A DNA stretch of 64,000 nucleotides from Candidatus Heimdallarchaeota archaeon (GTDB lineage Archaea > Asgardarchaeota > Heimdallarchaeia > Heimdallarchaeales > Heimdallarchaeaceae), in contig JAHLWR010000006.1 in NCBI GenBank assembly GCA_019057815.1, positions 1 through 64,000 of the forward strand, in the 5' to 3' direction. This document shows, piece by piece, positions 49,865 to 57,804 of the stretch; position 1 is the stretch's first letter; each line of letters starts with the position of its first letter. The notes under the pieces were generated by a model, which worked only from the letters and a program-made list of their open reading frames with translations, was not told where the DNA came from and made no database searches. Made by a program: the position numbers and the translations under genes.

Positions 49865-51688
49865 ATGATGATTGAAGTATTAATTGAGAAATTAGCTCGT
49901 ATACCCCAGTTCTATATGACCAACCTCAACCATGCAAAGGATAAAATTGCCTTCTATTGGGATATTACGGGTCGTATAGAACTATATGTAATGGACATTG
50001 AAACTAAAAAACATATACAAATAAGTCACGGTGAAGTACCTCGTGCACTTCGTTCTGGTTTTGTTTGGACAAGGGATGATAAATCCATCATTTTTGTAAA
50101 AGATAAAGGTGGTAATGAGCAACATGATCTCTATCGTCTTGATATTGAATCCGCTAAAGTAACTCAGTTAACTAACACACCCAATTTTCAGGAACATGTC
50201 GTTGATACAAGCCCAAACGGCAAATCTCTTCTTTATACCTCTACAAAAAAAGGTCAAGTGAACTTGCATTTTTATGATTTTGAAACTAAAGAGGACAAAG
50301 CACTCACTAATATGCCCACACCTGTGAGAGGTGGTAAATATGATCCAACAGGTTCCTTTATTGTCTTTGGCTATAATGACACACAAGATTTCCGAAATTT
50401 GGATATTTGGATAATGAATTCAGATGGTTCAAATCAGAAGAAACTTCTAAGCTTAAAGGATGGTTCTAGAGAAATTGTATCTGATATTTCAAAAGATGGA
50501 AAGATACTCGCCATTACTTCTGATTTTGAGGGCACATCTCGTGCAGGTGTTTATAATTTGGAATCAAAAGAACTCAAATTGTTTGGTGAAGGTGCACATG
50601 AAGAATATTCTGGTAAATTCACAAGCGATGGCAAATATCTCGTGTGTTTACAAAATTTCAAAGCTACAATTAAACCTATTATATACAACTGCGAAACAGG
50701 AGAAAAGCGTGTATTGGAATTCCCATCAGGTATTGTTGCTGGTACCCAAGTTACATCTGGAGACCGTTACTTAATCCTTTCATTAAATACTTCTACTAAT
50801 CCAAGTTCGTTATTGAAATACGATTTGAAAGAAGACAATTATGAGGACCTTATCCCAGTTCAAATTGGTGATATTGGCACTAATTTCTTCGTTGAAGACG
50901 AATATGTTGAATACGAATCAATAGCTGGTCTTACAATAGGAGCAATTCTTTATAAACCAAAGAACATAGAACCTGGAGTAAAACTCCCTGCTTTAGTTGA
51001 AGTTCATGGAGGACCAACCGGGCAGTATTTCAGAAACTTCGCTATGTTTTCTCAAATAATAGTAAACGAAGGCTTTGTAATAATAAAACCAAACTTCAGA
51101 GGTTCAACTGGCTATGGGCGAGCGTTTACTGATATGAATATAAAGGATATAGGAGGTGGAGATTTAGAAGACGTAGCAGCTGGAGCAGAATATCTGAAAA
51201 CATTAGATTACGTAGACCCTACACGAATAGGGATTTTTGGAGGTTCATATGGAGGTTATATGACTTTCATTGGAACGGTTAAAAAGCCTGATTTTTGGAA
51301 AGCTGGTGCTGCTTCTCAAGGTATAACTAATTGGCTAAAACTCTATGAAGAAAGCATGCCTCATTTCAAGTACTATTTACACATGCTACTGGGAAAACCA
51401 GAAGAAAATGAGGAACTCTGGAAAGATAGAAGCTCGTATTATTTTGCAGAGAATCTAAAATGTCCATTACTTATAATTCACGGTATTAATGATCCAAGAT
51501 GTCCAATATCTCAAGCTAGGATTTTCAGGGATAGACTTCTTGAGTTAGGGTGGAAGGAAGGAAATATAGGAGACAAAACTTTTGAATATCAAGAATTTGG
51601 TGATATAGGTCATGGTGGTTTCACCGATCAAGAGTTTAGAATACGAAGTTTTAAGACTATTTTAGATTTCTTCAAGCGAAGATTATGA
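49865..51688 (+). CDS. S9 prolyl oligopeptidase/acylaminoacyl peptidase
   Basis: Beta-propeller plus VHGGP, RGSTGYG, GGSYGG, HGINDPRC and GHG motifs. Confidence 0.94.
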   Translation: MMIEVLIEKLARIPQFYMTNLNHAKDKIAFYWDITGRIELYVMDIETKKHIQISHGEVPRALRSGFVWTRDDKSIIFVKDKGGNEQHDLYRLDIESAKVTQLTNTPNFQEHVVDTSPNGKSLLYTSTKKGQVNLHFYDFETKEDKALTNMPTPVRGGKYDPTGSFIVFGYNDTQDFRNLDIWIMNSDGSNQKKLLSLKDGSREIVSDISKDGKILAITSDFEGTSRAGVYNLESKELKLFGEGAHEEYSGKFTSDGKYLVCLQNFKATIKPIIYNCETGEKRVLEFPSGIVAGTQVTSGDRYLILSLNTSTNPSSLLKYDLKEDNYEDLIPVQIGDIGTNFFVEDEYVEYESIAGLTIGAILYKPKNIEPGVKLPALVEVHGGPTGQYFRNFAMFSQIIVNEGFVIIKPNFRGSTGYGRAFTDMNIKDIGGGDLEDVAAGAEYLKTLDYVDPTRIGIFGGSYGGYMTFIGTVKKPDFWKAGAASQGITNWLKLYEESMPHFKYYLHMLLGKPEENEELWKDRSSYYFAENLKCPLLIIHGINDPRCPISQARIFRDRLLELGWKEGNIGDKTFEYQEFGDIGHGGFTDQEFRIRSFKTILDFFKRRL

Positions 51689-51752
51689 TTTACCTTCTAC
51701 TTTTTTCTTTAATAAAATTGAAATATGAAAATAGATGATACAGATTCTTAGT

Positions 51753-52520
51753 TTACATTTTCTCGTTTTTCACCGGAAAGTAGAGTGGATAAATAAGTCT
51801 CGCAAAGTTCTGATATGCTTCCACACTATAATCATTTTCATTGAGTAAAACTTCAAGTTTAATAATTTCATATTCGCTGTAGCCACGCATTTCAGGGAAA
51901 AGGTTTGAATCACCGAAGTCGAATATTTTGTAAACTACATCTTTTAACTCACCTAATTCTACATATGCTTCAACAAGTAAGTGAATGTGAGGTGTAAGTT
52001 GTTCTAGTTGGTTATCTTCTTTTACCGATTTTGCAATTCGAATGATTGAATGTATAGCTGCTCTACGTGTGATGTAATCCTTCACGTAAATGACATTTTT
52101 AAGTGAATATAAAACATCCACATCATCAAGAAAACCTATAGATCTAATTGCTGCATACTGTAAATCATAATCACTTTCTTCTAGAATTTTGGCTATAATT
52201 TCTTTTGAAGAATAATCTTGCATTTTACCTAGAACTTCTAATACAACAAGTTTAACTGATAAAGAAGATATATTGATTAAATCGTGAAGGTGGTTAAGAG
52301 TGTTCCCTTTATGTTCAGGATAAACTTCTATCAGTTCTAGCAACGTAGAAGCTGCAGCGTTTCTAACATTCCAATCACTATCATGAAGGAAAGTATAAAC
52401 TAAATTTAAATCAGTTTCTTTTCCTTTTTCTTTCAAATAAAACAAAACTTTGAGCCGATTTAAAGCGTTTTCATTATCTTTTTTACGAAGAATAATTCGG
52501 CGTTTTAGGAAGTTAAACAT
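51753..52520 (-). CDS. HEAT-repeat protein
   Basis: LHDSDWNVRNAAASTL, ESDYDLQYAAIRSIG and DYITRRAAIHSI repeats. Confidence 0.85.
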   Translation of the reverse strand: MFNFLKRRIILRKKDNENALNRLKVLFYLKEKGKETDLNLVYTFLHDSDWNVRNAAASTLLELIEVYPEHKGNTLNHLHDLINISSLSVKLVVLEVLGKMQDYSSKEIIAKILEESDYDLQYAAIRSIGFLDDVDVLYSLKNVIYVKDYITRRAAIHSIIRIAKSVKEDNQLEQLTPHIHLLVEAYVELGELKDVVYKIFDFGDSNLFPEMRGYSEYEIIKLEVLLNENDYSVEAYQNFARLIYPLYFPVKNEKM

Positions 52521-52532
52521 AATTTTCCCTGC

Positions 52533-54083
52533 TTATAAATTATATAACCCTTCTTTGATAAGATAGGCTATTGCTCCTCTTTGTGGTTGCGTTAGTTTCT
52601 TCAAGTATGTGTAATCAATGTTTTCAACAACTGTCTGTTCCTTTTCTTCATCTAAGTCTGATATATATGCATCTTTTCTCTTTGATACTTGAACTGCTCT
52701 TGTCACAACGGGAAGATTGTAAGGACTTAGAGGTTGTTGTTTACCTATTTTATGTACTGCAAAGAGAGTTGCAACATGCATTCCTCCAATTTTCTTAATG
52801 GTAATAATATCAGCAAAAGCCGGTAAAATTGTTCGAAAGTCCTCTCTGTATAAAACCATATGATTATGGAGTATCACAAGCTGATCCAAACCTATACCGT
52901 GATCATTAACCTCAAACACATAGACTTTCTTTTCATCAGCATTAACATAACCTTTCGAAGATATTCTAGGGTTATCATCAAGTAGTTGTCCAAAGGTTCC
53001 ATATTTCTTTCGATAAGTTTTTTTGATGTAATTATCTATTAAATTCCAACCATAAGCGTAAATTGACCAAATGTCAGTATAGTGGCTTTTAGTTGTATGC
53101 CATGAATCAACGACAGTTTCAGAGTGGGAGTTCTTTTGAGTTGATAACCAATCTTTAAACTCATTCCAAGTAAAGTTTTCGAAGAATTCTAAGTCTGTTT
53201 TGAAACTAAATAGCTTTTCAAAAAGTTCTTTTTCATCACGTAGTTTTACAGCCAATTTGTCAACAAGGAATAGACTAAAAACCCCAATGGGTGGGGCCAT
53301 GTACCCTTTCAATTCTTTTAGATGCTCCTTTGGTGAGTATTCTTTACTCTCCTTTAAGTATTCTATGTGCTTTCGTTGAATATAAAAAGCAAAACCTTCT
53401 TCAACAAAATCATGTAAGTGCTTTTTTCTTGCAACATTTGCTCTTTCTTTGAGAACATTTATAGCTTCTATTGAAAAATTATTAAACAATGTATATTTTC
53501 GGGCATCTTCTGGAGGTTGATAAAAATCTTCAATCCCCGCCTCTGTAAATAATCTGATAACCGCAACTAAATCCTGATAGTATTGCCAAGCCCACATATG
53601 TTTTTTTTCAGATAAATCATTGAGTCTAAAAGCATTATTTTGGAATAGTTCCTTCAATATTATGTCAAATTGGTATAACTTAGCCAGTGTTCGAGCACTA
53701 TTCGATGAAGATTTTTCATTCATATATGTGTGTGCAAATGCATGCACTAACATTACCCGCAGAGTGTACTTTTGCTCATTAGAAAGTTCATAATTTGGAA
53801 CAGAAAGATAAATTAAAGTTGGTAAGGAATTGAATGTTGTTTCTTTTCCAATGGGCATGAACTCACTTACTCTCGCAGATCGCAGATGAGTTATCTCTTC
53901 AGCGGAAAGAATTGCTACTGGAGTACCAGAAGATTCTAACACTCTATTAACAGAAATGTGTATCTCAGGATTAAGAAAAACAAGCACTCTATAATTCTCT
54001 GGAGTGTCTTCAACAAGAGTTTTGAAATCTTCTCTCGCTTTCTGATAAACGGTAATTATGTCAGCTAATTCAGTTTTAAGCAT
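52533..54083 (-). CDS. Hypothetical protein with degenerate gluzincin motif
   Basis: LVHAFAH plus downstream EEGFA. Confidence 0.6.
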   Translation of the reverse strand: MLKTELADIITVYQKAREDFKTLVEDTPENYRVLVFLNPEIHISVNRVLESSGTPVAILSAEEITHLRSARVSEFMPIGKETTFNSLPTLIYLSVPNYELSNEQKYTLRVMLVHAFAHTYMNEKSSSNSARTLAKLYQFDIILKELFQNNAFRLNDLSEKKHMWAWQYYQDLVAVIRLFTEAGIEDFYQPPEDARKYTLFNNFSIEAINVLKERANVARKKHLHDFVEEGFAFYIQRKHIEYLKESKEYSPKEHLKELKGYMAPPIGVFSLFLVDKLAVKLRDEKELFEKLFSFKTDLEFFENFTWNEFKDWLSTQKNSHSETVVDSWHTTKSHYTDIWSIYAYGWNLIDNYIKKTYRKKYGTFGQLLDDNPRISSKGYVNADEKKVYVFEVNDHGIGLDQLVILHNHMVLYREDFRTILPAFADIITIKKIGGMHVATLFAVHKIGKQQPLSPYNLPVVTRAVQVSKRKDAYISDLDEEKEQTVVENIDYTYLKKLTQPQRGAIAYLIKEGLYNL

Positions 54084-55461
54084 TTAGAATACTCTCCCTT
54101 AGTATCTGTTCTCCTAGCTGCTTTATTTGCGCTGGGTCAATCAAGATTGGTCTAGTAATACCTTTTAACATTCTTTTTGTGTGGCTGTAGATTTCTCTTT
54201 TCCTTAGTGCTTCGGTTCCCATCAAAAAGTAACTAATGTTCCAGTTTCTAGCGTGATCTCTCTTTAGATTTTGAAAAATACCATTTAATTGCACTAAACA
54301 TTCGATTGTTTCTAGTTTTGTTTTTGTATCTATTTCATTGAAATAACGTTTGAGGTCAGAACTAGTTTTATGTTTAAATGGATATGTTGGGACATTTGGC
54401 ATACCGTCTGTTACTATTGTAAATTGAACATCTATATTTTTCTCATTATACTGCTTCTTAGCGTGTTTAATTGCTTGGAGAACACTTTGAACTGTATATG
54501 TTTTTCCTTTAGCTTTTGCGCTTAATAACAAATTCTCCATCTTGTAGTCATCATCAACAACGAATGGATTGTTTGTGATAGGTACAACTGCTAGCTTAAA
54601 CATGTCGTAACGTTTCCTTTTCCTGCGATTTAATATTTTAAAGTAATAATACAGACTTAAAGATGTTAATAAGGCTCCATCAAGACGCGACATACCGCCT
54701 TCAAAAACTGCTTTTTGCATGGATTGGCTCAAGTCTACAATGAAATAAACAAGACTTTTTCGATCTTTTTTTACTCGTATAATGTCTTCTTGTTTGACAC
54801 TAGTTGGTGGAATGCTTTTTGAACTCAGAATTGCACTTTTATATGTTTCCTTCAATTTTATTGTTCCACGAGGACGCTTTTGAACATCATCGATTGGTGA
54901 AACATTTATTTGCTTCATTAAATAGTTACCAAGAAGTTTTCCTAGAACTTCCATCACGTCTTCTCGGCTAATTCTTTTTTTCCTCCCAAAAGCATCAGTG
55001 ATTTCAAGATCAACTATTTCTCTAAGTTCTTTCAGCTTTTCAGCGAGCATCTGTAAATCTGCAAATCCTTCGTATTTTAAGTCATGAAGGAGTGTATTAA
55101 TGTACTTCATAATATCTTCAACCGTCTGAAGTTCATTTCTATTAACTCTTTCAAGCACATCTGGAAGAATTCTGTCCCCTATAAAACGTAATAATTTGAG
55201 TTCATTAACAAGCCTTTCTTCCTCAGCTTGTGTTAAGTGGGTTGTCATTATTTTTTGAGCTATGTTAGCTATAGCTACAGCATTTTTAGCTCCTAAAGAT
55301 AGTACAGCTCCTTCACGTGAACTACGACCCAGATGTGGGTTCCTCCAAAGTCTCAGGAGCTGTGCAGCACCTTCCCAATCGAGAATAAATTCTGCATCAC
55401 CAAAGTTTTGTAATGGGTCCCGAAACTCCGATTCTGTAAGAAGGAAAATACGGTGAGGCAT
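54076..55461 (-). CDS. vWA (MIDAS) domain protein
   Basis: IVDLSQSM (DxSxS), GKTYT and IVTDGMPN motifs. Confidence 0.88.
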   Translation of the reverse strand: MPHRIFLLTESEFRDPLQNFGDAEFILDWEGAAQLLRLWRNPHLGRSSREGAVLSLGAKNAVAIANIAQKIMTTHLTQAEEERLVNELKLLRFIGDRILPDVLERVNRNELQTVEDIMKYINTLLHDLKYEGFADLQMLAEKLKELREIVDLEITDAFGRKKRISREDVMEVLGKLLGNYLMKQINVSPIDDVQKRPRGTIKLKETYKSAILSSKSIPPTSVKQEDIIRVKKDRKSLVYFIVDLSQSMQKAVFEGGMSRLDGALLTSLSLYYYFKILNRRKRKRYDMFKLAVVPITNNPFVVDDDYKMENLLLSAKAKGKTYTVQSVLQAIKHAKKQYNEKNIDVQFTIVTDGMPNVPTYPFKHKTSSDLKRYFNEIDTKTKLETIECLVQLNGIFQNLKRDHARNWNISYFLMGTEALRKREIYSHTKRMLKGITRPILIDPAQIKQLGEQILRESILNA

Positions 55462-55487
55462 CTTTGTTTGTCACCCTTATGGATTTT

Positions 55488-57032
55488 TTATATATAATCA
55501 ACTTTTAATAACTGCTCATAGCTTGACTTAAGATTTTCAACTATAGCAGGAATCTCTTCAGTTTTGTAATAACGTTCTAGATTTTCATATTTAACAATTA
55601 AACCAGAAAGTTCTTTGTCACTTAAAGCTTTCATTTTTGATATATCTTCACTTATATCCTCTGCTTTGACTGCGATTTCAGACTCTTTGATATTGCTTCT
55701 CAAGTGTATTTTTATCTCTTGTAAAGCATCATTAATCATTGAAACAGGAATGTCATAATCATTAATTATCTGTCTTACATGTTCCAAAGATATTATATTG
55801 AAACCATCATCGTCAACATCTTTTGTTCGATTGAGTAGAACGCTACCAACAATGTTTGAAGTAGTACGAAGGTCTATATGGGGATTACGTTGAGGATCGT
55901 GAATTTCATCAAGACCTGCATAGAAATCAAGTCTTTGAACACGGCTTTCTGATCTTATCCCTCCACGCTTTAATGAAGGGGGGAGCGAATTGTTTCCAAT
56001 AAACGATAGAAAATCAATTGCTAACCGACTAACATAATCTTTTACGCTTCTTTCTCTTTCATATAACTGGAGAAGTGCAGGATTTGCAGTAATTCTCTGT
56101 CTCGAAAGAATTACTTGCTCAACAAACATATCTCTAACAATTTGGTTACGATTTTCAACTGACCTTGCTGGCCAAAGAACTTCGGGAATACGGTTAATAA
56201 TAGGTTGGGATTCTTCTCCAAATACTGTTAATGGGGCATTTGAGGTGAATATAACTGCACCATCTATATACACAGGTTCACCTTGAATATTATATTTAAC
56301 AGAGCTTGTGTCTTCTAAGAAACCCATTAGTGATTCCAACAACGATAGTGGTAATCTTTGAATTTCATTTACTACAATAAAACCTTGGCTGAGTACACCA
56401 ACTTTATGCGAAGTAGCAGTGTACGTTGTACTAGTTTCTTTGCCAAAAAGTTCTTCGAGATTTTCAACACCAGCTAAAAGCATGTAAAGACTCTCTGGAT
56501 CAGTACGAGGATCCAATTGTGCTTTACGAACAATCGTTTTTTCAACTGCTAGTTCCTTTAACCTTTCAACAAACATAGCAGGTTTTATTTGGAGTATACT
56601 ACTAGTATCATCTAATAGTACCCCTTCTCCCAAAACTTTCTCAATATTAGCTCTACAGAATGGGCATAATGATTGTAAAACCCTTATACTACCAAAAGGA
56701 TTAGCTTCGAAATCTTCAATGATATTGATGATATAACCAGCATCTTCAAGAAATGGACATTCAGCAATGTGTTGCTTGGAATTGTTTATTTCTCTGACAA
56801 TGTGATCAAGAAGTATTCGTGCAAACATTGATTTTCCTTCACTTGTTACACCAGTTATCAGTACTTTTCCTCCAACTGCTAATTTATCCATTATGAGATT
56901 CTTAGCATCTATGTTTCCTCTAACACTTGGATCATTTATTACTCTTTTACGAAATTCTTGATCCATTAAAATATGTCTAACTGAATAACCTTTGTAGCCA
57001 TCTTCAATTAATTTAGCAACTGTATGTGTCAT
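55488..57032 (-). CDS. AAA+ ATPase, ChlI/MoxR-related
   Basis: Walker A GVTSEGKS, CPF...CPFC insert, Walker B variant IVVNE, sensor-1 TSN, and NR Arg finger. Confidence 0.85.
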   Translation of the reverse strand: MTHTVAKLIEDGYKGYSVRHILMDQEFRKRVINDPSVRGNIDAKNLIMDKLAVGGKVLITGVTSEGKSMFARILLDHIVREINNSKQHIAECPFLEDAGYIINIIEDFEANPFGSIRVLQSLCPFCRANIEKVLGEGVLLDDTSSILQIKPAMFVERLKELAVEKTIVRKAQLDPRTDPESLYMLLAGVENLEELFGKETSTTYTATSHKVGVLSQGFIVVNEIQRLPLSLLESLMGFLEDTSSVKYNIQGEPVYIDGAVIFTSNAPLTVFGEESQPIINRIPEVLWPARSVENRNQIVRDMFVEQVILSRQRITANPALLQLYERERSVKDYVSRLAIDFLSFIGNNSLPPSLKRGGIRSESRVQRLDFYAGLDEIHDPQRNPHIDLRTTSNIVGSVLLNRTKDVDDDGFNIISLEHVRQIINDYDIPVSMINDALQEIKIHLRSNIKESEIAVKAEDISEDISKMKALSDKELSGLIVKYENLERYYKTEEIPAIVENLKSSYEQLLKVDYI

Positions 57033-57066
57033 GCGCCTATCAACCTTTTTTTTTCAATTGTAAATT

Positions 57067-57675
57067 TTATTTTTGAGAATCTTGTAAATCCTCTTCAATA
57101 ACTATTTCAACGCGTTTTTTTGCGCGTTTTTCTAATAATTTTTCTTTTTTCATCCAATCCTTTTTCCAGCCTAACCTAATTACATCCTTGAGCCAGTTCA
57201 TAGCTTCAAGAAGTTCCGAAACCTCTGGTGTTTCAAATATTTGCCAGTTTCTATCAGTAAGTCGAATAAGCGAGAGGTTTTCTATGAGTTCTCCTCGAGA
57301 TAGTGCACCTTGAAGGTTTGAGTTGTAGGAACATATTGCAATTGGAAGATTCTTAGTGTTTTCAGACCAAAGTAGTTTCTCCCATAAGAAAATTCTTTCA
57401 TATTTAATCATATCTTCTTTTGATGCATCAATGAGATAAAGTATGCCTTCGAATGGTTCAAACAAATTTGGTTTGAACTTAAATCTTTCGTTTATTGGTA
57501 ATTTATTGAGGGAGTCATCGATAATAAAATCAGATGTTGGAGCATGTGTATTTAAAAGGCGAACTCTGTTGCGCGTTGCAGGATTAGAACAACCAATAAT
57601 TAGTATAGAAACCTCTGGTTTACCTAATTTTCTACGTAATTTCTGTTTTAAAGATGATTTGGTCATGCTAGTCAT
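57067..57675 (-). CDS. Arf-family-fold protein with degenerate G motifs (pseudo-GTPase)
   Basis: LGKPEVSILIIG, EGILYLIDAS, LQGALSRGELIENLSL..LTDRNWQIFET and LEAMNWL are colinear with Arf/Arl. Confidence 0.75.
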   Translation of the reverse strand: MTSMTKSSLKQKLRRKLGKPEVSILIIGCSNPATRNRVRLLNTHAPTSDFIIDDSLNKLPINERFKFKPNLFEPFEGILYLIDASKEDMIKYERIFLWEKLLWSENTKNLPIAICSYNSNLQGALSRGELIENLSLIRLTDRNWQIFETPEVSELLEAMNWLKDVIRLGWKKDWMKKEKLLEKRAKKRVEIVIEEDLQDSQK

Positions 57676-57804
57676 TGGGTCTCGCTATTGTGCAAAGACT
57701 ATAAATGTTTAAGAATGTTATGTCACCAAACTCATAAGTGTACAGACTAGTTCAATCAATCTGTAATGGGTTTTACTTCCCATATTTGTAGAGGAGAAAA
57801 AAAC

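Follow-up and report, generated by a model that had tools for sequence, protein, structure and literature searches.

Several described systems set an AAA+ motor beside a von Willebrand factor A (vWA) adaptor that carries a metal ion-dependent adhesion site (MIDAS), namely the MoxR systems NorQ/NorD, CbbQ/CbbO, RavA/ViaA, and CobS/CobT. The module of PrkA (YeaG), YeaH (YhbH; DUF444), and SpoVR (YcgB) occurs in bacteria and some archaea. In bacteria, its genes usually form one three-gene operon and show strong cofitness, and their biochemistry is unknown (bioRxiv 10.1101/072470). The pseudoGTPase domain (psGD) of AAGAB binds the AP1 and AP2 sigma subunits through an unconventional interface in an assembly pathway (PMC12490416). 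Here, we describe a five-gene operon encoding an Arf-fold pseudo-GTPase (hereafter pseudo-Arf), an AAA+ ATPase, a MIDAS vWA protein, a zincin-like protein, and a HEAT-repeat protein. It is located in a stretch of 64,000 nucleotides (nt), which we refer to as the window, on contig JAHLWR010000006.1 of a Heimdallarchaeaceae metagenome-assembled genome (MAG; assembly GCA_019057815.1).

On balance, and with modest confidence, we read this locus as a housekeeping-type, vertically inherited operon for one ATP-driven protein-remodelling or assembly machine, apparently a distant, kinase-less cousin of PrkA-YeaH-SpoVR that also includes a HEAT:pseudo-Arf pair. In the sequences searched, the operon occurs solely in Asgard archaea of the Heimdall group. 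A preliminary description of the DNA had proposed five co-oriented genes with gaps of 34, 26, -8, and 12 nt, and the listing of open reading frames (ORFs) agrees, giving five minus-strand ORFs of 202, 514, 461, 516, and 255 amino acids (aa) with these spacings, genes 3 and 4 overlapping by 8 nt at positions 54076-54083. Its domain calls (an Arf-fold pseudo-GTPase, an intact AAA+ protein, a vWA protein with a complete MIDAS, a zincin-like pseudo-enzyme, and a HEAT protein) likewise held. The genes, with the evidence for each, are:

57067-57675, minus strand: gene 1, Arf-fold pseudo-GTPase of 202 aa (Pfam Arf, PDB matches, and orthologue alignment)
55488-57032, minus strand: gene 2, AAA+ ATPase of 514 aa (Walker A and B, sensor 1, and Arg finger)
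54076-55461, minus strand: gene 3, vWA protein of 461 aa (complete MIDAS and a match to the TRAP vWA profile)
52533-54083, minus strand: gene 4, zincin-like protein of 516 aa (AlphaFold2 (AF2) model and orthologue alignment)
51753-52520, minus strand: gene 5, HEAT-repeat protein of 255 aa (Pfam HEAT_2)

Conservation and distribution of the operon

Synteny in related genomes, which the preliminary description had named as a test of its proposal, was assessed in 21 loci from families f1, f2, f3, f4, and f6 (the window's order comprises families f1-f4, and f6 is another family of the same class). The AAA+ gene, the vWA gene, the fourth gene, and a downstream gene of 250-270 aa kept their order in all 21, with short spacers or overlapping genes throughout; the lack of synteny that would have spoken against the proposal was not seen. 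Because the arrangement recurs in every one of these loci, across five families, it is not a product of chance. The flanking genes are common to the f1 loci only and differ in the loci of the other families. Within f1, the AAA+, vWA, and fourth proteins are 69%, 76%, and 67% identical, respectively, and the neighboring uvrB product is 71% identical.

The AAA+ gene is single-copy, and 40 of the 41 relatives from its order were found to carry it. Among 301 sampled genomes of the phylum it is limited to families f1-f4 and f6, and it was not found in f5 (0/21) or in any other sampled family. That it is single-copy, near-universal in its own clades, and not found elsewhere indicates vertical inheritance. 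Database homologues of the operon proteins are Asgard proteins only, nearly all labelled hypothetical; they number 108 clusters for the AAA+ protein, 93 for the vWA protein, and 20 representatives among 1.84 billion proteins for the fourth protein. Closest among public records are a Candidatus Heimdallarchaeota MAG, at 97% identity, and Ca. Heimdallarchaeum aukensis, at 78%.

The position of the pseudo-Arf gene is less regular. It lies upstream at the loci of f1, part of f3, and f6, whereas it is 2 kilobases (kb) away or on another contig in genus g7 and on another contig in f2, and in genomes G025 and G026 it is unlinked from the operon yet retained. A family-level genome search found it in f1 (23/24), f2 (1/1), f3 (7/7), and f6 (11/12) and did not find it in f5 (0/22), f7 (0/2), or f4 (0/2), a pattern that equals that of the AAA+ gene with the exception of f4. 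In f4, the pseudo-Arf profile weakly matches a stretch about 5 kb downstream of the operon (G029:C199:22249-22632, locus L085; E 1e-11) that contains one in-frame TAA, possibly a pseudo-Arf gene that has decayed or diverged strongly.

More distant MAGs, labelled Hodarchaeota or Promethearchaeota, carry rearranged versions of the operon. In these, the vWA gene and the fourth gene, which again overlap by 8 nt (L055, 5753-5760), remain next to a longer HEAT-type gene. The AAA+ gene either is divergently adjacent (L055 and L089) or lies on the same contig at a distance of 35 kb (L056/L088). None of these loci has a pseudo-Arf gene. A HEAT-type gene follows gene 4 at every locus, including the distant ones, and the stop and start codons often overlap. 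The pseudo-Arf is thus the least constant member: some genomes carry its gene unlinked, none was found in f4, and the Hodarchaeota-labelled loci examined lack it. The earlier suggestion that the complex is built around a GTPase fold is not supported by this comparison.

In the distant loci L055 (1693-2229, minus strand) and L089 (9593-10108, plus strand), the AAA+ gene is paired with a gene for a conserved polytopic membrane protein of 171-178 aa, which occupies the place of the pseudo-Arf gene in Heimdallarchaeaceae. This pairing hints at membrane tethering of the machine in both lineages.

The AAA+ ATPase and its profile similarity to PrkA

The active residues of the AAA+ protein were read from its sequence: Walker A at residues 61-68, an hhhhNE Walker B at 218-223, sensor 1 at N265, an Arg finger at R281, and a lid at about 284-435, with an insert of about 150 residues bearing a Cys motif after Walker A. 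On these residues, the protein would be an active ATPase. The motifs quoted in the preliminary description (GVTSEGKS, IVVNE, and CPF...CPFC) are all present. Across the orthologues there is no variation in Walker A, the Asn-Glu Walker B, the sensor-1 Asn, the NR motif of the Arg finger, or many other positions. The Cys triad of the insert was considered as a zinc site and rejected: in genus g7 (L029:9367-10908 and L030:9210-10751), C92, C123, and C126 are replaced by Ser or Ala with the surrounding motif intact, so the triad is not an obligatory metal site.

Assigning the protein to a family by standard searches proved difficult. Its Pfam signal is weak (Sigma54_activat, 24.9 bits), as are those of the 16 orthologues (AAA_5 in 15, Sigma54_activat in 15, and Mg_chelatase in 10), and single-sequence and profile searches of PDB returned nothing usable. 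Foldseek matches of the AF2 model, to SOS1 and others, were discarded as meaningless given the poor model core. The lid is the sole part of the model with matches to AAA+ structures, and it resembles the lids of Lon. Lon is the only other PDB neighbor of PrkA, and the PrkA structure 9xip is not among the lid matches listed.

Profile-profile comparison was more informative. Using hhalign with reference profiles from seven bacterial PrkA-YeaH-SpoVR operons and a MoxR control of 12 proteins from related genomes, the AAA+ protein matched PrkA at 92.4% probability (E 5e-7) over 186 columns that span Walker A, the long insert, Walker B, and sensor 1. The match to MoxR, in contrast, reached 76.9% over 41 columns around Walker A, and PrkA against MoxR gave 0.9%. 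The preliminary description had placed the AAA+ protein with the ChlI/MoxR type; by profile it is nearer PrkA/YeaG. Comparisons against the single Escherichia coli sequences of YeaG, YeaH, and YcgB were uninformative.

The vWA and zincin-like proteins

The MIDAS residues of the vWA protein (D243, S245, S247, T321, and D352; the window protein reads DLSQS...GKT...TDG) do not vary among 16 orthologues. Its profile retrieved the TRAP vWA domain from PDB (E 0.005), and several orthologues carry precomputed Pfam VWA_2 or VWA_CoxE assignments, whereas the window protein itself has no Pfam, NCBIfam, or PADLOC match. The N-terminal ~230 residues are helical and conserved and matched nothing. When compared with YeaH by hhalign, the vWA protein gave 38% (E 3e-4) for the vWA part only, and the N-terminal parts gave 0.7%.

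The fourth protein has no Pfam, NCBIfam, or PADLOC match either, and PDB sequence and profile searches gave nothing usable. Its AF2 model is confident, with a predicted local distance difference test (pLDDT) score of 80 and a predicted template modelling (pTM) score of 0.82, and comprises a zincin-like domain (about residues 1-337) and a beta-rich C-terminal domain (about 370-516). Foldseek yielded no match for this model below E 0.37, and the zincin fold was seen only with an all-against-all structure aligner. HAFAH and EEGFA occupy the positions of the zincin HExxH motif and third ligand, respectively. In orthologues, HAFAH becomes YALAK, QLLAM, or HSLSR, and EEGFA becomes VGFG, HGFG, or EAFA, such that an HExxH with a catalytic Glu and a third ligand is not conserved among them. 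The invariant residues of the family lie instead in a stretch of about 110 residues between the HAFAH and EEGFA helices. Because the His and Glu residues are unconserved and the invariance falls between the two helices, the protein appears to be a dead scaffold across the family, catalytically inactive and probably of zincin fold.

The HEAT protein and the pseudo-Arf

Gene 5 matches Pfam HEAT_2 (PF13646) with 51 bits (cut-off 27.7, E 1.8e-13) and HEAT (PF02985) with 30.7 bits (cut-off 23.5). Gene 1 matches Pfam Arf (PF00025) with 34.6 bits against a cut-off of 22.3 (E 1.7e-8), over residues 71-165, that is, in the C-terminal half only. Its best PDB matches are Arl3, Arl1, and Arf1, with the Arl3 match (E 6.8e-8) extending over residues 21-168, and the Asgard Arf structures 8ouk and 8oul were also retrieved. 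The pseudo-Arf sequence GCSNPATR aligns onto GLDNAGKT of Arl3. No orthologue has the GK[ST] of the G1 P-loop (GxxxxGK[ST]), and the G3 DxxG and G4 NKxD motifs occur in none of them; the interswitch is shortened and lacks DxxG, and the G4 position in orthologues reads YNSN, YNAE, or PNTS. Going by these motifs, gene 1 encodes an Arf-fold protein without GTP-binding motifs, a pseudo-GTPase. The invariant residues are W98, E99, W103, S135, L136, R138, and D141, and the protein begins with a basic N-terminal helix and ends in a charged, Lys-rich tail.

Structure prediction of the HEAT protein together with the pseudo-Arf scored 0.76 in three runs, a mark attained by 58 of 80 solved complexes and by 2 of 110 mismatched pairs in a benchmark, and the best of three controls scored 0.00. 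The runs had at least 94% of contacts in common, and the partner pLDDT was at least 77. The predicted pseudo-Arf interface (residues 94-103, 135-145, and 164-169) corresponds to Arf helix 3, the alpha4-beta6 loop, and the C-terminal helix, and does not use the switch regions. Of the 21 pseudo-Arf columns with at least 90% conservation, eight belong to the interface, which has 19 residues (p 1.3e-4, hypergeometric test), a check that is not fully independent, as the same alignment fed the model and the conserved Trp could belong to the core. The prediction supports binding of HEAT and pseudo-Arf via the most conserved face of the pseudo-Arf, a non-switch one, and in this respect the earlier idea of a dedicated multi-subunit assembly gains support.

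The Arf model has 41 matches in the genome, in keeping with its Asgard origin. At least six Arf-type genes are tightly clustered on contig C36 at about 111-119 kb. Several of them sit in open frames 300-340 aa long, suggestive of fusions between Arf domains and other domains.

Expression signals and flanking genes

Two putative expression signals were read off the sequence around the operon:

57699-57706, minus strand: putative promoter of the operon, a TATA-like element (ATTTATAG) upstream of the pseudo-Arf ATG at a distance of about 25 nt
51711-51734, minus strand: putative archaeal terminator, a T-rich tract downstream of the HEAT stop codon

With the TATA-like element this close to the pseudo-Arf ATG, the mRNA would be leaderless or have a short leader.

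The operon is flanked on one side by genes for an S9 peptidase and an ABC permease and on the other by genes for a NUDIX protein and two PALP (pyridoxal phosphate-dependent) enzymes and by uvrB. These are ordinary, housekeeping genes. In other Heimdallarchaeaceae (L022-L026), uvrB is directly downstream of the HEAT gene, whereas in the window's genus the S9 peptidase and ABC permease genes are found there (49865-51688) and uvrB is on the opposite side of the operon. The swapped position of uvrB indicates a local rearrangement around an intact operon.

Proposed function and alternative explanations

In the reading we favor, the motor would be the AAA+ ATPase, presumably a ring that hydrolyses ATP, with a core distantly similar to PrkA/YeaG. 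The MIDAS vWA protein would act as an adaptor through which the AAA+ protein engages a client or the dead zincin scaffold, and the zincin-like protein as a non-catalytic binding scaffold. The HEAT protein, which is always present, and the pseudo-Arf, which is usually present, would form a nucleotide-independent heterodimer via the predicted non-switch Arf face, and this pair probably targets or tethers the machine, possibly at a membrane. What the data show is the gene set with its conservation, distribution, motifs, and folds; the five-subunit complex, its remodelling activity, and the membrane link are inferred from these. The kinship with the PrkA module is supported for the motor, is plausible for the trio based on gene order and sizes, and is unproven for the third member.

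Several results weigh against this reading. The AF2 model of the AAA+ protein is poor (pLDDT 65, with the core below 50), and its core is unreliable; the hhalign profiles are shallow (number of effective sequences (Neff) about 2-3), and MoxR was the sole control family. The match between the vWA protein and YeaH may reflect merely the shared vWA fold. Against SpoVR, the fourth protein gave 0.7-0.9% by hhalign, which is not significant, and the C-terminal kinase-like domain of PrkA (PF06798) is missing, with the C-terminal 230 residues of the AAA+ protein giving 0.2% against it. The Pfam models of PrkA, DUF444, and SpoVR detect none of the operon proteins. Furthermore, the complex prediction covers 1 of 10 possible subunit pairs and is a prediction rather than a measurement, and the membrane link is hinted at by the basic termini of the pseudo-Arf and by the membrane-protein neighbor in distant relatives alone.

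Pfam AAA_PrkA (PF08298) had no match at E up to 10 in the 16 AAA+ orthologues, and in the whole genome it matches a gene different from the operon's AAA+ gene. DUF444 (PF04285) did not match the window vWA protein, SpoVR (PF04293) did not match any of 16 fourth-protein orthologues, and the profile search of 1.84 billion proteins with the fourth protein returned no SpoVR. Canonical SpoVR and DUF444 were not found in the window's genome, and in 151 Asgard genomes SpoVR gave three sub-threshold matches inside large unrelated ORFs and none above the Pfam cut-off. There is no solved SpoVR structure for a comparison of folds. By hhalign, the N-terminus of the vWA protein, the C-terminus of the AAA+ protein, and both halves of the zincin-like protein all scored below 1% against PrkA, YeaH, SpoVR, and MoxR.

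We consider it unlikely that the operon instead encodes a maturation chaperone of the MoxR/chelatase type, serving metal insertion or reactivation of one specific enzyme whose gene lies elsewhere, the other three proteins being accessories for that client. The pairing of an AAA+ protein with a MIDAS vWA protein is the hallmark of such systems, the weak orthologue matches to AAA_5, Mg_chelatase, and Sigma54_activat point the same way, and among the database labels one source names an AAA+ orthologue a 'MoxR-like ATPase' and one names a vWA orthologue Mg-chelatase-related. Nevertheless, the profile match to MoxR covers far less of the motor than that to PrkA (41 columns against 186), AAA_3 (PF07726) matches neither the window AAA+ protein nor its 16 orthologues, five ordinary MoxR genes are found elsewhere in the genome, and no candidate client enzyme is conserved beside the operon. 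It is quite doubtful, too, that only the AAA+, vWA, and zincin-like proteins act together while HEAT and pseudo-Arf form a separate pair in the same transcription unit. This would fit the lack of linkage of the pseudo-Arf gene in G025 and G026, its non-detection in f4, and its absence from the Hodarchaeota-labelled loci, as well as the fact that the sole predicted contact examined is that of HEAT with pseudo-Arf; the constant place of a HEAT-type gene after the zincin-like gene, often with overlapping stop and start codons, and the agreement between the pseudo-Arf and AAA+ distributions at family level (save f4) argue otherwise.

The preliminary description had also raised a conflict role. We regard it as very improbable that the operon is an anti-virus or conflict system of the ternary vWA/AAA+ type, its pseudo-enzymes being sensors or decoys. 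Systems of this kind often contain pseudo-enzymes and solenoids. AAA+/vWA cores occur in described conflict systems dependent on nucleoside triphosphates (NTPs) (PMC7159879). PADLOC gave two weak HEAT-type matches (E about 1e-3) but matched none of the four other proteins. The operon is single-copy, lies among housekeeping genes, and has descended vertically, all of which disfavor such a role: it is near-universal in its own clades and was not found elsewhere, it diverges as slowly as uvrB, and its gene content and order are fixed, unlike patchy, variable defence islands.

Returning to the remodelling machine that we favor, a more specific version would have HEAT and pseudo-Arf act as a nucleotide-independent Arf-on-solenoid pair that recruits a PrkA-like machine to the Heimdall membrane for complex assembly or remodelling. 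We put this forward as a speculative extension that is unlikely to be correct. If true, the pair would be a prokaryotic instance of the Arf-solenoid pairing of the eukaryotic coat and adaptor type, frozen in a nucleotide-independent form.

Comparison with known systems

No known organisms are more closely related to eukaryotes than the archaea of the Heimdall group, which have many Arf-type GTPases. These proteins are under study as possible precursors of membrane trafficking. The pairing of an Arf fold with an alpha-solenoid underlies eukaryotic coats and adaptors. In this operon, one Arf-derived protein comes with a fixed set of partners, namely a HEAT solenoid, an AAA+ motor, a vWA adaptor, and a dead zincin, so that archaeal Arf-solenoid pairing could be tested directly with five small recombinant proteins. 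It would also be a second, very divergent module of the PrkA-YeaH-SpoVR type, and comparing both could show which parts are essential. We would therefore place its value in being a well-defined target rather than an answer. The preliminary description knew of no system with this composition, and we found none in the literature searched, where Asgard Arf GTPases are described and neither a degenerate pseudo-Arf subfamily nor this operon was found.

The bacterial PrkA module shares with the Heimdall operon the gene order of AAA+, vWA, and a protein of about 450-540 aa, with similar sizes for the vWA and third-gene products, and in both AAA+ cores a long insert separates the Walker motifs and Walker B lacks the Asp. 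In Thermomicrobium and Pontibacillus, yhbH and spoVR overlap by exactly 8 nt (L049:4920-4927 and L053:4477-4484), as do the Heimdall vWA and zincin-like genes; this common overlap may be a coincidence or retained translational coupling. The modules differ in that the Heimdall AAA+ protein has 514 aa rather than about 640, being about 125 residues shorter, and in that the Heimdall operon adds HEAT and pseudo-Arf. With the MoxR systems, the operon shares the AAA+ motor beside a MIDAS vWA adaptor, and a remodelling or maturation logic would be expected here too. The Heimdall AAA+ protein, however, has an Asn-Glu Walker B and the insert of about 150 residues, and its operon has three extra dedicated partners and no client gene nearby.

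For the remaining proteins, TAF2 of TFIID, an inactive scaffold of zincin fold, is among the closest known systems. Eukaryotic and Asgard Arf/Arl proteins resemble the pseudo-Arf in sequence family, in predicted fold, and in the helix N-terminal to the G domain; the pseudo-Arf orthologues, in contrast, all lack G1, G3, and G4, and the predicted partner face is a non-switch one. The psGD of AAGAB likewise uses a GTPase fold as a nucleotide-independent binding module, which fits the predicted pseudo-Arf contact. Here, the homology ends at the G fold, and the partner is a HEAT solenoid, encoded in a prokaryotic operon with an AAA+ motor.

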